From NCBI GenBank assembly GCA_020058085.1, contig JAGVER010000015.1, forward strand, positions 1 to 36,851: a stretch of DNA of 36,851 nt. The letters run 5' to 3'. This DNA is from Candidatus Omnitrophota bacterium. GTDB lineage: Bacteria > Omnitrophota > Gorgyraeia > Gygaellales > Profunditerraquicolaceae. The notes under the pieces are model-generated. The model saw only the letters and a program-made list of their open reading frames with translations. It was not told the DNA's origin and ran no database searches. Made by a program: the position numbers and the translations under genes. Below, one piece after another: positions 100-34,612 of this stretch (position 1 is the first letter of the stretch; the number at the start of each line of letters is the position of its first letter).

Positions 100-1193
100 T
101 CTTCTAGGAAAGACCTGACTACGCTAGAAACAAATTCCGCCTGTTTCTTTGTTAAATCAAAGAAAGATGGCAACCATAACCCGCGCGAGGATATATCCGA
201 AGAATTAGAAAATTTACTACCGCTAACCATGTAAGGTTTTTGTGTATGCAAAGGGTACCAAAAAGGACGACAACCGATATTAAATTTTGCCAAAACAGAT
301 TCTATTTTCTTTCTATTATAGACCAAAATATCCGTCCACTGCGCTACCTCGCCGTCTTCGTTTTCAAGAGAAGGTAAGACTACACCCGGAGAGTCCGATA
401 ACATTTCTTGATACCATTTATCTCTTTGCCTAGCTTGAAAAAGGCGGTTAGGAAGACTCTCTAATTGAGCAATGCCTATAGCAGCCTGAATGTTAGTTAA
501 TTTAAAATTATAACCCATAACTGGATGCAAATCATTTCCGCCGGTACCTTGAAAACGACGCCCCTGGTCTTTTAACTCAAGGAGCCGATTATGTAATTTA
601 CTATTATTAGTAGCAATCATCCCCCCTTGCCCCGTAGTCACTGTCTTATTGGCGGAAAAGGAGAAACACCCTGCATCTCCGAAAACACCTAGATAGCGGC
701 CCTTATATTTTGAACCTAATCCCTCCGTTGCGTCACAGATTATGGATAACCCTTTTCTTTTAGCCAACAGCTCTAACAATTCGTAATTAGCAGCTCTACC
801 ATTTACATCAACAGGTACAATAGCCTTAGTGCGGGGGCCGATATTTTTAGCCACCGCATTTATATCAATCGTAAACCTATGCGGCTCAATATCTACAAGT
901 TTTACTTTAGCTCCAGTTAAACGCACAGCATTAGCAGTAGCAATAAAAGTCAAATCAGGTACAATAACTTCATCACCAGCCCCAACACCCATTCCCATTA
1001 GCGCCAGAGCAATCGCGGCCGTACCACTAGTTACCCCAACGCAGTATTTTGCTCCGATAAATTCCGCGATTTTCTTTTCAAAAAGCCGTGTATAACTACC
1101 ATCGTTTAAATAATTACTCTCAATTACTTTAATTGCCAGCTCTTTTTCGCGTCTGCCGGTTTTAGGCAAAAACCAGGGGATATATTTTTTCAT
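54..1193 (-). CDS. DegT/DnrJ/EryC1/StrS PLP-dependent sugar aminotransferase (perosamine synthase-like)
   Basis: SGTAAI, TFIATANAV, FSFSANKTVTTGQGGM (PLP lysine) and GYNFKL motifs; last ~14 residues are encoded by the repeat element. Confidence 0.92.
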   Translation of the reverse strand: MKKYIPWFLPKTGRREKELAIKVIESNYLNDGSYTRLFEKKIAEFIGAKYCVGVTSGTAAIALALMGMGVGAGDEVIVPDLTFIATANAVRLTGAKVKLVDIEPHRFTIDINAVAKNIGPRTKAIVPVDVNGRAANYELLELLAKRKGLSIICDATEGLGSKYKGRYLGVFGDAGCFSFSANKTVTTGQGGMIATNNSKLHNRLLELKDQGRRFQGTGGNDLHPVMGYNFKLTNIQAAIGIAQLESLPNRLFQARQRDKWYQEMLSDSPGVVLPSLENEDGEVAQWTDILVYNRKKIESVLAKFNIGCRPFWYPLHTQKPYMVSGSKFSNSSDISSRGLWLPSFFDLTKKQAEFVSSVVRSFLEENEAPRAKARGFLKP

Positions 1194-10793: not shown

Positions 10794-12185
10794 TTATGAA
10801 ACACCCCGTAAGATTATTTCTTCACCCAACTTTAATAATTTATTTGCCTGATTCAAGCTTTTTGCCTCGGCATAAGTACGCATAATCGGTTCAGTTCCTG
10901 AACCACGGAACATAAGCCAGCTTTCATCATCACAAATAAGCTTAATCCCATCATAATCTTTAACCTCAATCACTTTTTTACCCAATAGCTCTTTAGGTAG
11001 CGTTTCTTTCTTTGGCTCAACGCGGCGCGCAAGATGTAAATCCTGGCGCACGTAGTAATATTTACCGAACTTTTTCTCAGTTTCATTTAGAATCTTTAGA
11101 ATATTTTTGTTCCGGTAAACCATCATTTCGATCAAAAGCAATCCTGCCATTGTTCCGTCGCGTTCAGGTATATAGCCCTTAACTCCCATACCGCCTGCTT
11201 CTTCTCCTCCAGTAACGATATCCTCTGTCTCCATAAGATTAGAGATATATTTAAAACCTACCGGGGTTTCGTAAAGCTTAATCTTCAGGAATCTGGCGAT
11301 ATTATCCATCATCGTCGTGCCGCAGATTGTTTTTACTAAGCCCCCGGACCAGCCACGATCCTGATTTAAATGTAATGCTAAAAGCCCGAGTATTTTTTGC
11401 GGATGTATAAAAACTCCTCCGGGAGCAACCGCAGCAATCCTGTCCGCATCACCATCTAAGGCGATACCCAAATCAAATTTCTCTTTCCTTACACGCTCCT
11501 TTAGAACCTTTAAGTTCTCCTCTACTGGTTCAGGCCTTCCGCCATCAAAAGAAGGATTAATAGTATTATGGATAAACTCCAGTTTTATATTTGTGCCCTT
11601 TAAAACCTGCGCGATAAAGCTATCCCCCGAACCATACATAGAATCAACCAAGACTTTAAATCTCTTAGGCTTAATTTTTTTTAAATCAATATAATTACGG
11701 ATAAACTTAACATAATCTTTGATCAAATCTTTCTTCTCGGCTTCTAAAGATGAGGAATTCTTCTCTGCCACAGGATTCTTCCCTAAAAGAGCCTCAACTG
11801 CTTTAGTTATTTCAACTCCGGCCGCTCCACCCGAGGGCATCTTAATCTTAAAACCATTATACTCTGCTGGATTATGTGAAGCAGTAATCATAATCCCTAA
11901 ATCACACTTGTTATTTTTTACGGCAAGGCTTAATGCCGGAGTAGGCAGATAACGGTCTGATAAAATTACCTTATTGCCGTTATTTCCCAGAACTATAGCC
12001 GCAGCTTGCGCAAATTTTCCTGACATAAAACGCGTATCGTAGCCGATAGCCACTTTTTTTCCACTACCTAAATAATCAGCAACTGCTTGAGTAAGAATCC
12101 TAACATTCTCATAAGTATAAGAATCCGCTATGATTGCTCGCCATCCGTCTGTACCGAATTTAATCTCTGAAAATGATTCACCCAT
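10794..12185 (-). CDS. Phosphoglucomutase/phosphomannomutase family protein
   Basis: FGTDGWR, TASHNP phosphoserine loop, DGDADR metal loop, GGEE, RGSGTEP. Confidence 0.93.
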   Translation of the reverse strand: MGESFSEIKFGTDGWRAIIADSYTYENVRILTQAVADYLGSGKKVAIGYDTRFMSGKFAQAAAIVLGNNGNKVILSDRYLPTPALSLAVKNNKCDLGIMITASHNPAEYNGFKIKMPSGGAAGVEITKAVEALLGKNPVAEKNSSSLEAEKKDLIKDYVKFIRNYIDLKKIKPKRFKVLVDSMYGSGDSFIAQVLKGTNIKLEFIHNTINPSFDGGRPEPVEENLKVLKERVRKEKFDLGIALDGDADRIAAVAPGGVFIHPQKILGLLALHLNQDRGWSGGLVKTICGTTMMDNIARFLKIKLYETPVGFKYISNLMETEDIVTGGEEAGGMGVKGYIPERDGTMAGLLLIEMMVYRNKNILKILNETEKKFGKYYYVRQDLHLARRVEPKKETLPKELLGKKVIEVKDYDGIKLICDDESWLMFRGSGTEPIMRTYAEAKSLNQANKLLKLGEEIILRGVS

Positions 12186-30924: not shown

Positions 30925-31392
30925 CTAAAGATTCTTTAGCATCTGTTCAATGACCTGAATATGCGACTTTTCAACGCAACTTAACTTCCTTAATACAACT
31001 AATAGCGGAAGACTCTCTGTATTACCGATCAGTTGTTTACAAAAATGGCTATAGAAATCGAATGCAGATTTTTCTCTTACTAAAGCAAGATTCAATGCTT
31101 CTTCGGCCCCCTTAGGCTTACTATACTTTTCTTTAGTTTCATACTTCATAATTCTTCTTATTTGAATTTCTGCATTACATTTCTCATTATCCAACATTCT
31201 TCGAATACCCCTAATATGAGCTTTTTCGGAATCACGTAACTTTCTTAAAGTAGATACCAAACTAAAATTTTTTTTATCTTTCAATAACTGATTATAGAAT
31301 TTATATGAATCTATTTCTTTTTGTAATGCAATCCCTAAAGCATCTCTAGCTGTATAAGGTTTAGAATATTTAGCTTTCTTAATATATTTCAT
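30925..31392 (-). CDS. Ferritin-like/rubrerythrin-family protein made of two duplicated halves
   Basis: Two A-x-x-x-A-L-x-x-E...FY...ExxH units; start placed at MKYIKK behind an AAGGGGGA RBS. Confidence 0.75.
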   Translation of the reverse strand: MKYIKKAKYSKPYTARDALGIALQKEIDSYKFYNQLLKDKKNFSLVSTLRKLRDSEKAHIRGIRRMLDNEKCNAEIQIRRIMKYETKEKYSKPKGAEEALNLALVREKSAFDFYSHFCKQLIGNTESLPLLVVLRKLSCVEKSHIQVIEQMLKNL

Positions 31393-31429
31393 TATCCCCC
31401 TTGCACAATAAGTACACACCAGCAAATCC

Positions 31430-31471
31430 GCCCAGAATGGGCGCACTTAGCGATCATTTAAGCCAAGGTGC
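31430..31471 (-). repeat. 42-nt two-hairpin motif, copy 1 (nested within a larger 31405-31496 stem)
   Basis: GCAC-C-TTGGCT-TAAATGAT-CGCTAA-GTGC-GCCC-ATTCT-GGGC. Confidence 0.7.
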
Positions 31472-31503
31472 GATAATAAGGCCGGGTGCTTATTGTTTAT
31501 AAT

Positions 31504-31612
31504 TTTATACTTTCGCGGCCAAAAACATTGCCTTTTAAGGCAAGGATGGATAATGGCCGCTCAAGTATTTCGCTTCAAGAAACCGCGGGCTTTAGCCCGC
31601 GGAGCTTCATTT
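31504..31612. mobile_element. Full copy of the IS200/IS605-end-like mini-element (no ORF)
   Basis: Near-identical to 1-99; outer ATACT-TTC-GCGGCCA / TGGCCGC-TCA-AGTAT stem plus two TTTA-loop hairpins. Confidence 0.75.
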
Positions 31613-31621
31613 AAGTTTCAG

Positions 31622-31981
31622 TTACAATTTAGGTAATACGAATTGATTTATTTTTTCCCTATCCTCTTTGCTTATAGAGACAAATTCTACACCGATTTCA
31701 TATGCTTTACTAGAGCTTGAAGTGCCCACCATAGATTCTTTTGACCAAACTGCTCTACCGGTTGCAGAGATCGATTCCTTTGAACCTGGCAGCAAAAACT
31801 TAAGGTCCAGCATAGTATAAGGATTTAGCCTTTCAAAAGCAACAATACGTATTCCAATTTCACTTATATCTTTGCTTAGTATCATCGGATCCGGTACTTT
31901 CTCTGGCGAAGATATTATTTTATAGTCTACCTTTACGTTAAGAGAAACCCTGGGAAAAGCCCTTTTTTCATCAAATGCCAT
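31622..31981 (-). CDS. PilZ domain protein
   Basis: EKRAFPR and DISEIG c-di-GMP motifs, GRAVW, IGVEF; AGGAGG RBS. Confidence 0.88.
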   Translation of the reverse strand: MAFDEKRAFPRVSLNVKVDYKIISSPEKVPDPMILSKDISEIGIRIVAFERLNPYTMLDLKFLLPGSKESISATGRAVWSKESMVGTSSSSKAYEIGVEFVSISKEDREKINQFVLPKL

Positions 31982-32143
31982 AAGCCCTCCTTTTTGTATA
32001 TTTTACTCCAAATAAAAACCCTCAACAAGCATTATTCTTGTAGAGGGCTCATCATTAATAACTAACATGGGAAAAAACATATCATTTTTTCCAACTAAAG
32101 ACCATTTGTGATATATTCTATTACAAAGGGTTAAGAAGAGAAC

Positions 32144-32168
32144 AAAAAATCCGCTCTTTAAGCGGATT
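32144..32168 (-). terminator. Terminator resembling the tRNA terminator
   Basis: AATCCGCT-TAAAG-AGCGGATT-TTTTG. Confidence 0.7.
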
Positions 32169-32185
32169 AATTGGTTGCTGATAAA

Positions 32186-32284
32186 TTATTTATGGAATAC
32201 CTCCTTAAGGATTACATTTGCAATATTCTCAGCTAAAAGTATGTTTCCTTTGTCAGTGCAATGCCCAAATTCACCACCGAACTC
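32186..32284 (-). pseudogene. C-terminal remnant of an SGNH/GDSL-like protein
   Basis: Manual translation EFGGEFGHCTDKGNILLAENIANVILKEVFHK-stop; no in-frame ATG before an upstream stop. Confidence 0.55.
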
Positions 32285-32395
32285 TTGCCCGTATCTAATG
32301 TAACTAAATAAGCATATAAATATGCTCTTCCTGCTTCCAGCACTATAAGAATAAAATATTGAATTTAATTATAGCACTCGATGAGCATAAAACAA

Positions 32396-32425
32396 CAAAA
32401 AACCCGCTCTTTTATAAGCGGGTTT
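32396..32425 (-). terminator. Terminator of tRNA-fMet
   Basis: AAACCCGCT-TATAAAAG-AGCGGGTTT-TTTG. Confidence 0.8.
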
Positions 32426-32474
32426 CTGTATCAATTGCGGGGCTGAGATTTGAACTCAGGACCTCAAGGTTATG

Positions 32475-32755
32475 CTTACTACTTCAGCTTGCGCTGCTCC
32501 ACCACAAAACTTGACGGATTCGTAGTCTGGACTATATCTTGACCCTTAATTAAAAGGGCCCCTGCCGTCTAGTCTCTACACCTTTCCGTAACAAATCTTA
32601 ACGGACTTGGCTCGGTATTACCTCACATTAAGAAGGCACCCAAACATAAAGGATTGTTTGGTGCCCACTCTCTGTGGGGCTTCACCGAATTTGACAGGTT
32701 ATCCTTCAATCGTTACCGACTGAAGAGCCCATTAGACAACAAAAATTGTCCATTG
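32475..32755 (-). ncRNA. Group I self-splicing intron (IC3-like), 281 nt, no homing endonuclease ORF
   Basis: P AAATTCGGTGAA, Q AATACCGAGCC, R GTAGAGACTAG, S AAGATATAGTCC; exon ends in U paired to G of the IGS ATGGGCT; terminal G. Confidence 0.92.
32636..32677 (+). repeat. 42-nt two-hairpin motif, copy 2 (antisense inside the intron P5 region)
   Basis: GCAC-C-CAAACA-TAAAGGAT-TGTTTG-GTGC-CCAC-TCTCT-GTGG. Confidence 0.7.
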
Positions 32756-32855
32756 AGCCTTGCGAGCTACCAGGCTGCTCCACCCCGCGATTATTTTTTA
32801 AAACAAGAAAATCGTTAATATTATAACACAATTTCTATATTAGCAAACTAAATAA

Positions 32856-33140
32856 TTACCTTTTGTTCTTCTCCGGAATTATCTTAATCGGAATTTCACC
32901 TTTTCTAACTACTCCCATCTTCTCCCGGGCAATTCTCTCCTGATAAACCGGATCGTTTTCTATTCTTTTCAGTTCCTGCTGTAACAAAGCATTCTCTACG
33001 TTCAGACGCCTAATCTTGTCTTCCAAATCAATATTCTTATCCCTTAACCCCTGCAGTTTAGCAAATCCCGGGATAAACAATACCAGGATAAAAGCCGTAA
33101 CCCCAAAAGACCAGAATGCTTTTTTTAATGTGGCTAACAT
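32856..33140 (-). CDS. ftsB: Septum formation initiator FtsB/DivIC
   Basis: TM helix, leucine zipper, ERIAREKMGVVRKGE; downstream of eno. Confidence 0.85.
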   Translation of the reverse strand: MLATLKKAFWSFGVTAFILVLFIPGFAKLQGLRDKNIDLEDKIRRLNVENALLQQELKRIENDPVYQERIAREKMGVVRKGEIPIKIIPEKNKR

Positions 33141-33143
33141 CTG

Positions 33144-34409
33144 CTATTTACTTAAAGAAACATCGGCATAAACTGCCTTAGGCCCCAGCCCTTCTTCAAT
33201 CCTCAAAAGTTCGTTATACTTACAAATCCTGTCCGTACGCGAAAGCGAGCCGGTCTTAATCTGGCCGCAACCGCAAGCTACCGCCAGATGAGCAATAGTA
33301 GTATCCTCTGTCTCGCCTGAGCGATGAGAGATAATTGCCTTATATTTATTCTTTTTGGCAATATTTATTGCCTCTATCGTCTCGGAGAGCGAACCAATCT
33401 GGTTAACTTTTATCAGTATAGCATTACCAATTTTCTCCGCAATCCCTTTCTTAAATATCTTAGGATTAGTCACGAATATATCGTCACCGACTAATTGGAC
33501 CCTATCGCCCAACTTATTAGTCATCTCCTGCCAACCTGACCAATCATGCTCGGAAAGCCCGTCTTCGATAGAAAGAATCGGATACTTGCTTAACCAACCT
33601 TCATAAATCTGGATCAGATCAGCAGAATTCTTTTCCGCGCCATCAAAGCTATACTTACCATCATTGCAAAATGAACTTGCCGCGCAATCCAGAGCTAAAG
33701 AAAGATCTTTGCCCGGTTTATACCCGGCTTTATCAATCGCCTGAATGATTAAATCCAGAGCTTCTTGATTAGAGGTAAGATTAGGAGCGAATCCGCCTTC
33801 ATCTCCAACGGAAGTGGAGAGTTTCTTAGATTTAAGCAAAGACTTTAAATTATGGAAGACTTCGGCAGCCATGCGCAAAGCTTCGTGAAAAGTTGGCGCA
33901 CCAACCGGCATAATCATAAATTCCTGAATATCCAGATTATTATCCGCGTGTAACCCGCCGTTTAAGATATTCATTAAAGGCACAGGTAAGATTCTGGCCT
34001 TTTCACCACCCAAGAATTTATATAAAGGCTGTTTCTTAGAGATCGCTGCGGCTTTAGCTACGGCCATAGATACGCCCAAAATTGCATTAGCGCCAAAATT
34101 AGCTTTATTCTCCGTGCCATCTGCTTTTATAAGTAGTGAGTCTATTTTATTAAAATCAGGAACAAGGCCCTTTACCTTTGACGCGATTACAGTATTAACA
34201 TTATTAACCGCTTTCAATACACCTTTGCCTAAATACCTCTTTTTATCGCCGTCTCTTAACTCCAGAGCTTCATTATCTCCAGTCGAAGCACCTGATGGGA
34301 CTGCCGCCCGCCCTAGAACACCATTCTCTAAGATCACATCTACCTCTACTGTTGGATTTCCACGGGAATCCAGAATCTCACGGGCTAATACTTTCTTAAT
34401 CTTGACCAT
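33144..34409 (-). CDS. eno: Enolase
   Basis: [44 protein letters not shown]; start placed at MVKIKK behind AAGGAG. Confidence 0.97.
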
Positions 34410-34421
34410 TTTATTCTCCTT

Positions 34422-34463
34422 GCCCAGAAAGGGCACACCGACCTATCCTTTAAGGCCGGGTGT
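34422..34463 (-). repeat. 42-nt two-hairpin motif, copy 3 (eno 5' UTR, abutting the RBS)
   Basis: ACAC-C-CGGCCT-TAAAGGAT-AGGTCG-GTGT-GCCC-TTTCT-GGGC then AAGGAG. Confidence 0.7.
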
Positions 34464-34502
34464 CATGATTAATTTTTTAGAATTTGTAAAACCAGGAAAC
34501 AT

Positions 34503-34530
34503 ATTATACACAACACCAATATACAGTCAA
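34503..34530 (-). promoter_or_regulatory. Putative eno promoter
   Basis: TTGACT-16 nt-TATAAT. Confidence 0.6.
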
Positions 34531-34612
34531 GGAATAAGTTGAGCTCCTTGAGGTTTTGTCTAGCGAAATCCTTGGTCGAACGTTAGATGAGACCAAGGAG
34601 TGCTCAAATAGT

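Follow-up and report, generated by a model that had tools for sequence, protein, structure and literature searches.

The DNA analysed here, which we call the window, is a stretch of 36,851 nt from a Candidatus Omnitrophota bacterium (contig JAGVER010000015.1 of assembly GCA_020058085.1); it is contig C14 of G000, a metagenome-assembled genome (MAG) of 665 kb in 15 contigs that is 58% complete. Within it, a 42-nt motif made of two adjacent hairpins occurs in three copies (Table 1), and the present analysis is concerned with the nature and the spread of this motif. An earlier note, made from the sequence of the window, had described the three copies, and we recovered each of them exactly where it had been placed. 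As the note had said, all three have an outer stem RCAC/GTGY, a bulged C, a 6-bp inner stem and a TAAA(G/T)GAT loop (hairpin 1), and next to it a 4-bp hairpin whose loop is 5 nt long and rich in pyrimidines (hairpin 2). The pattern CACC-N6-TAAAKGAT-N6-GTG is matched three times in the window against 0.09 expected, a number reached in none of 100 shuffles. Pfam searches agree with the gene contexts first proposed, enolase (eno) lying downstream of one copy and a rubrerythrin/ferritin-like protein downstream of another; the third copy is indeed antisense to its host RNA, inside the P5 loop of a group I intron. In the eno leader, the Shine-Dalgarno (SD) sequence next to the unit is predicted 0.98 unpaired. 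The copy in the ferritin-like gene leader is nested in the loop of an outer copy, the complete array spanning 31403-31489 on the reverse strand. The intron splits an initiator-type tRNA gene with exons at about 32754-32789 and 32436-32501 (limits read by eye), and it is because of this split that ARAGORN finds no tRNA in the window.

Table 1. Features of the window that carry or adjoin the 42-nt units (SD, Shine-Dalgarno sequence).
Feature	Position	Strand	Remarks
Group I intron, host of the 32636-32677 copy	32502..32753	-	Rfam RF00028, 55.8 bits
Antisense unit in the intron P5 loop	32636..32677	+	Own-strand junctions TTAAGAAG^unit^GGCTTC
Single unit of the eno leader, C-type	34422..34463	-	ACACC / CGGCCT / TAAAGGAT / AGGTCG / GTGT, then GCCC-TTTCT-GGGC
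SD AAGGAG (34416-34421), 6-nt spacer, eno ATG (34407-34409)	34407..34421	-	Unit directly abuts
Inner unit of the nested array, rubrerythrin/ferritin-like gene leader	31430..31471	-	Model match, 49.5 bits
Outer unit, 5' half (GCACC-CGGCC-TTA) and 5-nt linker TTATC	31472..31489	-	Pairs with 31403-31429
Outer unit, 3' half (GGATTT-GCTG-GTGT) and its own hairpin 2 (GTAC-TTATT-GTGC)	31403..31429	-	Read from the sequence
After the outer unit of the ferritin-like gene leader: A, SD AGGGGG (31396-31401), ATG (31390-31392)		-	

The covariance-model search that the earlier note had proposed was carried out with a model (R1) built from an alignment (A1) of 14 genome copies, 13 of them distinct. It returned 59 matches in G000 at E ≤ 10 and 42 at E ≤ 1e-3, the eno-leader unit scoring highest of the genome (59 bits), and further copies in relatives. 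The typical unit is about 43 nt long and consists of a 10-bp bulged hairpin and a hairpin of 4-5 bp. Its structure is conserved by covariation, as had been supposed: over the 14 copies helix 1 is 93% paired, with changes on both sides in 8 of its 10 pairs, and its covariation score of 0.534 compares with 0.228 ± 0.032 in shuffles (reached in 0 of 500) and with at most 0.134 when the partners are slid. A model-fitted alignment of 51 copies from other MAGs gave 97% pairing in helix 1, with a score again reached in 0 of 500 shuffles. Hairpin 2 is 63.5% paired in the 14-copy alignment, a low value because its loop varies in length and the ungapped alignment slips. The copies fall into sub-families with differing stems, identical 42-mers stand at the unrelated loci C7:138757 and C11:21377 (contigs of G000), and the loop is variable, TAAAGGAT, TAATTGAG, TAAATGAA, TATTTGAG and AATAGGAT all being found among the G000 copies. 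Some composites recur as blocks, namely a three-way-junction composite at C8:4424, C8:28173, C4:24695 and C5:140977, and the GTACCTCGAC unit, which has an identical position in four outer units. A structure-only descriptor scan that left the loop sequence free was uninformative, with 1303 matches against 965 in shuffled sequence.

The remark of the earlier note that the motif belongs to no recognised family holds for Rfam 15. In the window, Intron_gpI alone was detected, the copies staying unmatched even at E ≤ 10 (31300-34600), and eight further copy-bearing loci gave only matches to small-subunit (SSU) rRNA and to the flavin mononucleotide (FMN) riboswitch at E ≤ 0.01; a riboswitch or other known RNA family was rejected, since the copies have no Rfam match. 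Full-text literature searches, which did not extend to supplementary tables, yielded no published description of the repeat family, and the words repeat, transposase and hairpin are absent from the main genome survey of the Omnitrophota (PMC10066038).

We sorted the 42 matches of G000 into position classes of our own, naming genes from their first residues (the Pfam check was made for eno and the ferritin-like gene only). In 21 of them, an SD of the A(A)GGAGG type with its start codon follows within 0-1 nt of the unit, and a further 12 are upstream tandem members or inner nested members of arrays that end flush at an SD. All 33 of these gene-leader matches are in the sense orientation, hairpin 2 ending 0-1 nt before the SD, and the genes downstream are unrelated housekeeping genes (tuf, rpsM, rpsK, rplT, clpP, serA, parB, eno and others). 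Elsewhere lie nine: the intron copy, one in an FMN riboswitch, two on the strand opposite the 16S gene and upstream of it, three lying within repeats of a different family, and those at C5:45813 and C11:49098. Credible coding regions hold none of the 42. Tandem units are separated by a single A. In nested arrays, the inner unit occupies loop 1 of the outer one (TAAAG^unit^GAT or TAAAT^unit^GAT), to a depth of up to three or four levels (C5:64500-64650, C11:53843-53993). By our reading, about 28 of the 51 model matches in other MAGs, two duplicate pairs included, are likewise flush with an SD or part of flush arrays. When 20 of the 21 directly flush leaders were folded, the SD was unpaired with a median probability of 0.63, and with a probability above 0.5 in 14 of the 20. 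Since the predicted folds leave the SD mostly unpaired, the unit does not appear to act by sequestering it, and an SD-sequestering switch was rejected. As for the two units near the 16S rRNA gene, the 5' end of this gene lies at a contig edge (C3:1-407, reverse strand) and the units (C3:561-602 and 892-933, forward strand) are 150-530 nt upstream of it, on the other strand, where no gene starts close by.

Empty orthologous sites, for which the earlier note had suggested a search, were found at eno, fusA-tuf, rpsM, rpsK and the intron P5 loop (relatives are numbered as G000 is). At eno, G002, G010, G006 and G001 keep the TTGAC-N17-TGTATAAT promoter and the AAGGAG(G)-6 nt-ATG segment without the unit. 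Between fusA and tuf, the empty form TTTAAAA(A)TAAGGAGG...ATG of G001, G006 and G010 corresponds in G000 to a filled form, TTTAAAATA + 91 nt (two units) + AGGAGG...ATG, and the insertion separates TA from AGGAGG to the exact base and, apart from a 1-nt ambiguity, duplicates nothing. At rpsK, G007 is empty (...AAATACGAGGAG...) and G000 has a unit directly 5' of AGGGAG, while at rpsM a nested array is present in G000 only. The units at these four loci are thus all specific to G000, though G002 has 38 and G007 19 matches elsewhere. The reverse comparison, from sites filled in G007, G010, G004 and G002, was limited by the incomplete G000 assembly, from which three of the four loci are missing; the fourth is in G000 an unalignable spacer holding other repeats. 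In the eno leader of G007 (locus L024), an unrelated palindrome of about 110 nt (GTCATTCTGAAGGAGCC...GGCTCAGAATGAC) was observed between the promoter and the SD, so that different repeat families use the one leader.

The intron provides a further comparison. It is present in three members of the genus (G000, G002 and G007), and in G003, G004, G005 and G010 the exon matches abut and the gene is uninterrupted. The P5 loop of G007 is short and empty, reading GAAGCC-TTAATTTGCAAAG-GTAATACC on the intron sense strand. G002 carries in this loop a unit of the same sub-family as that of G000, in the sense orientation (...GTAAG^unit^GTAATACC), and the G000 unit is antisense and 13 nt further 5' (AAGAAG^unit^GGC). 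On their own strands, the junctions of both read AAG^unit^G, which becomes AA^GG when shifted by the ambiguous G. The two units are independent insertions, and their orientation follows a short purine target and not transcription. No RNA run was listed as containing the stretch. Four metagenomic DNA runs of two studies contain shares of 0.06-0.11 of it and, compared at a likeness of at least 85%, gave contigs of relatives rather than of this population. These contigs have the intron with 11-12 other letters instead of the unit; the corresponding joint, 32622 to 32678, was found in all four runs with sides of up to 106 letters (sides under 30 letters being ignored).

Units also occur inside riboswitches. 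An FMN match was obtained in 36 of the 41 genomes searched (40 relatives and G000), of which 22 measure 113-131 nt and 14 measure 146-209 nt, and 29 of the 36 sequences were read. Those of normal length that were read have P3 loops such as GGCGGT-TAAG-CCCGC. That of G000 (C4:33687-33895, forward strand; 488-696 in locus L080) is 209 nt long as compared with the 138 positions of the model and has insertions of 43 and 45 nt in the P3 and P6 loops, both of them antisense units, one of which scores E=0.011. Antisense units were also seen in P3 of G014, G020 (two in tandem), G022 and G031, in P6 of G015 and in the P4 region of G018 and G012, which brings the total to ten units in eight genomes, all antisense; six of them are also model matches, and those of G022, G018 and G012 and the second one of G020 were recognised by eye only. 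A further seven long aptamers contain unrelated hairpins. In seven congeners of G000 the aptamer is empty, so that units must either have been gained repeatedly at one spot or been lost precisely more than once. This recurrence of antisense units in FMN-riboswitch loops is a new finding. The units are always antisense in riboswitches and always sense in SD leaders, possibly because a riboswitch would not be indifferent to the sense RNA.

The family is patchily distributed: of the 41 genomes of the order, counting G000, 25 have R1 matches. Seven members of the genus have 42, 38, 19, 3, 3, 3 and 1 copies; four others, two of them 95-96% complete, have none. The exact C-type pattern was found in 28 stretches of a species-level collection, 25 labelled Omnitrophota or Omnitrophica, two an unclassified 'bacterium' and one Planctomycetales by its submitter; the 51 model matches mentioned above come from these and related loci.

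Other repeats were met along the way. Spacers in the ribosomal-protein region of G000 (C5:118540-118885, 128960-129160 and 129780-129915, that is, 540-885, 10960-11160 and 11780-11915 in locus L029) are filled by a second dispersed family, whose units end in ...TTCGCTAGACAAAAACATAAGGTGCTC; these repeats, too, end in an SD-like AAGGTG just 5' of start codons, and the three 42-nt units embedded in them have the opposite orientation. A third type consists of long palindromes, nearly perfect (CCCGTCTC...GACGGG on either side of an AT-rich hairpin), with a second hairpin after each, at C5:134480-134650 and 136665-136800 (L029 16480-16650 and 18665-18800), in intercistronic spacers that are missing in congeners. 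Upstream of the array in the ferritin-like gene leader, the segment 31503-31632 of the window (…ACTTGAGCGGCC…GGCCGCGAAAGTATAAAA) is probably another dispersed repeat, because it resembles a spacer element at L029 16880-16930 and shows a depth spike, up to 570 (run X3), in the metagenome contigs of relatives.

We consider it probable that the motif is the unit of a miniature, non-autonomous, structured interspersed repeat family of the Omnitrophota, mobile and not a gene-specific control element. The filled and empty sites show gain of units in the DNA itself, by precise insertion that duplicates no target bases. Three kinds of place receive them: the position just 5' of the SD GGAGG core, typically WAA^GG; the SD-like loop (TAAAG^GAT) of resident units, which gives rise to the nested and tandem arrays; and the terminal loops of structured RNA genes (the group I intron P5 and the FMN riboswitch). 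In leaders, their orientation follows the polarity of the SD. With 1-nt ambiguities resolved consistently, most sites read WAA^GG, that is, TAA^GGAGG or AAA^GGAGG at SDs, TAAA^GGAT in the unit's own loop, and TAA^GGTAA and GAA^GGGC in the intron, and such a target would explain SD docking and self-nesting both. It does not amount to a single uniform consensus, as the riboswitch sites depart from WAA^GG, to which those at SDs, in the unit's own loop and in the intron conform. Insertion may be strand-specific and involve a single strand, with a trans-acting enzyme that would recognise the folded hairpins. Once inserted, the unit would be co-transcribed and fold on its own, leaving the SD free, which may be why it is tolerated even in the leaders of the most highly expressed genes. 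The integrity of the hairpins would then be kept at the RNA level of whichever strand is transcribed. Helix 1 has 19 G-T and 6 A-C oppositions in the 35 sense or other copies, compared with 0 G-T and 3 A-C in the six antisense copies, where the host RNA reads these A-C as G-U pairs, and this suggests that wobble pairs follow the transcribed strand; the asymmetry is only suggestive because the copies are few and partly related.

The earlier note had offered two readings of the motif, a mobile element recognised by an HUH-type enzyme or a protein-binding RNA/DNA module. Mobility is well supported by the 42 matches, the identical copies, the tandem and nested arrangements, the empty sites, the opposite insertions in the intron and the range of 0 to 42 copies. 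A strictly sense distribution in 5' untranslated regions, which the note had set against mobility, was not observed, as antisense copies are present in the intron and the FMN riboswitch. The HUH part was not supported: Y1_Tnp (PF01797) occurs in 30 of the 41 genomes with no relation to unit copy number and is equally common in motif-free relatives, and none was found in G000 at its 58% completeness. Around 13 Y1 loci (± 2 kb) in motif-bearing genomes, units were present at one, where they lie on a single side and form the next gene's leader.

Several observations weigh against a mobile family of this kind. As to the mobilising enzyme, neither Y1 nor TnpB is associated with the units: Y1_Tnp was not found in the motif-rich G000, G007 and G017 (assemblies 58-73% complete), and TnpB is present in only five of the 41 genomes. 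No autonomous master copy was found in the G000 assembly when halves of hairpin 1 were sought 60-5000 nt apart, a search that returned only nested composites and unrelated copy pairs. Polymorphic insertion or excision within one population was not seen, the metagenome runs having given contigs of relatives only. Several composites recur entire, so the copies do not all stem from independent events. One subfamily is placed in the 3' arm of outer units and not in the loop, and the FMN flanks (CTTTA^unit^ACCGCC and ACTG^unit^TACC, on the unit strand) do not fit WAA^GG, so that the target rule is not uniform. The wobble asymmetry, as said, comes from few and partly related copies. Flush docking, finally, could come partly from selection, as the sole tolerated position in very short leaders, and not from targeting alone.

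A more pointed version of the mobile reading, which we regard as possible but doubtful, is that of a 'Shine-Dalgarno-homing' element, a unit of about 43 nt actively integrated at the AA^GG(A)GG of ribosome-binding sites (RBSs) and at its own SD-like loops by a dedicated system, possibly through base-pairing like that of the anti-SD. Were this true, translation-initiation signals would constitute a class of transposon target, the units would be kept as inert, self-folding SD insulators, and the strictly antisense placement in riboswitches would mean that the sense RNA is not neutral. The mechanism offered in the earlier note, namely that the units are elements like the repetitive extragenic palindromes (REPs) moved by a REP-associated tyrosine transposase (RAYT) or an IS200-type HUH Y1 transposase acting on a bulged hairpin in single-stranded DNA, seems to us unlikely. 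The bulged-hairpin architecture would fit it, as would the lack of target duplication and the orientation-specific insertion behind a 5' flank that varies little (WAA^); RAYT-like Y1 genes (50-77 bits, open reading frames of 160-250 aa) are those found in 30 of the 41 genomes, among them each of the four motif-rich genomes with a completeness of 90% or more (G002, G015, G020 and G021). However, 8 of the 11 motif-free genomes of at least 90% completeness have Y1 as well, and units adjoin Y1 at the single locus mentioned. According to parts of PMC3733652, REPs are mostly downstream of genes and have an unpaired GTAG or CGTC tag at one end, whereas our units lie upstream of genes, begin with RCACC and close helix 1 with GGTGY, with neither tag conserved at either end. 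They are direct-tandem or nested instead of paired in inverted orientation.

We find it quite improbable that the unit is a purpose-built, cis-acting leader RNA, be it one bound by a global RNA-binding protein or one that serves, with an SD-like loop, as standby site or enhancer of translation, and that it has spread because it is useful. The uniform sense orientation of the 33 leader-array matches and their flush position before the SD argue for it, as do a loop that is often SD-like (TAAAGGAT), the high expression of the host genes (tuf, ribosomal proteins, eno, clpP) and wobble pairs that follow the transcribed strand. Yet the unit is not kept at orthologous leaders, even in the congener with 38 copies, and the four unit-free congeners dispense with it; many loops are not SD-like (TAATTGAG, TAAATGAA, TATTTGAG), the copies in the intron and the FMN riboswitch are antisense, the SD is not sequestered and no Rfam family matches. 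CsrA (PF02599) was over the cut-off in 0 of the 41 genomes, the controls E. coli, B. subtilis and T. maritima being positive; a CsrA-type leader was rejected on this result and on the many loops that have no GGA. Little more can be said for a spread without transposition machinery, by recombination, gene conversion or templated repair through SD microhomology, with selection keeping the harmless positions, to which we give an equally low probability. Composite blocks that recur whole (C8:4424 and others, and the GTACCTCGAC unit in four outer units) and the lack of an associated transposase would be expected from such a process, but the insertions are base-precise, their flanks share no homology beyond the SD, units have entered one 20-nt intron loop, which has no SD function, in opposite orientations, and riboswitch loops have been entered repeatedly.

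The mobile family that we favour can also be set beside known small repeats. Parts of PMC3733652, PMC2817692 and PMC3337134 describe REPs, bacterial interspersed mosaic elements (BIMEs) and REP doublets forming hairpins (REPINs) as short, GC-rich, imperfect palindromes of high copy number that are lineage-specific and non-autonomous, and also as structured, co-transcribed with genes and clustered in composite arrays, all of which recalls our units. Like REPs, the units are imperfect palindromes in many copies (42 matches in 665 kb, with a covariation-supported hairpin). They differ in the tag, in having two unequal hairpins each, in their arrangement, as 33 of the 42 stand in sense leaders ending at the SD, and in lacking RAYT co-occurrence or flanking, Y1 being present in 30 of 41 genomes regardless of copy number and units being near only 1 of 13 Y1 loci (the incompleteness of the MAGs limits this co-occurrence test). 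Elements of the IS200/IS605 type have hairpin-based ends and insert without target duplication, 3' of a fixed tetra- or pentanucleotide and in a strand-specific manner, by means of TnpA (Y1). Hairpins, the lack of target duplication and an orientation fixed to a short target motif are shared with them, but here the whole unit is of about 43 nt, both flanks of the site appear constrained (AA^GG), and TnpA/TnpB pairs occur in few relatives and are missing from most motif-rich ones. As for derivation from IS200/IS605, the 5' flank of the unit is mostly WAA, though not at riboswitch sites, and neither Y1 nor TnpB is associated.

Miniature inverted-repeat transposable elements (MITEs), which derive from DDE transposons, were rejected, as there is no target-site duplication (fusA-tuf) and the unit ends are not inverted repeats of each other. 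The BOX elements of Streptococcus pneumoniae (PMC3049150) and the mycobacterial interspersed repetitive units (MIRUs) resemble our units as small modular repeats with stable hairpins that vary in tandem number, lie in the intergenic spacers of operons and close to gene starts, and are oriented with transcription. Our units differ from both in sequence and architecture. We know of no self-nesting, base-precise SD docking or insertion into riboswitch or intron loops in BOX elements or MIRUs. Rickettsia palindromic elements, of about 100-150 bp, are mostly intragenic and in frame; they resemble the units as small palindromic mobile repeats that are tolerated within functional genes, including RNA genes, by folding out of the way, and differ in that none of the 42 G000 units is in a real coding region. 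The attC sites of integrons have RYYYAAC / GTTRRRY core sites and extrahelical bases and stand at the 3' end of gene cassettes; they were set aside, since the outer stem is RCAC/GTGY and not AAC/GTT and the units precede core housekeeping genes. On this comparison, the family appears to behave like small structured repeats of the REP/BIME, BOX or MIRU type, yet lacks the defining features of REPs and MITEs for which we looked.

The site preference of the repeat family is unusual. If docking is active, RBSs would be a natural integration target and a sequence of 43 nt would carry all the cis information required, which would be of interest both for the mechanisms of mobile DNA and as a minimal tag for insertion. 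In practice, the family can mislead comparative RNA discovery, as covariation together with a 5' untranslated position mimics a riboswitch or leader, and it inflates known RNAs, with an FMN aptamer of 209 nt instead of about 125 and an enlarged intron P5. At about one match per 16 kb, a streamlined genome of about 1.2 Mb tolerates structured 'junk' at the translation starts of genes such as tuf, the ribosomal-protein genes, clpP and eno.

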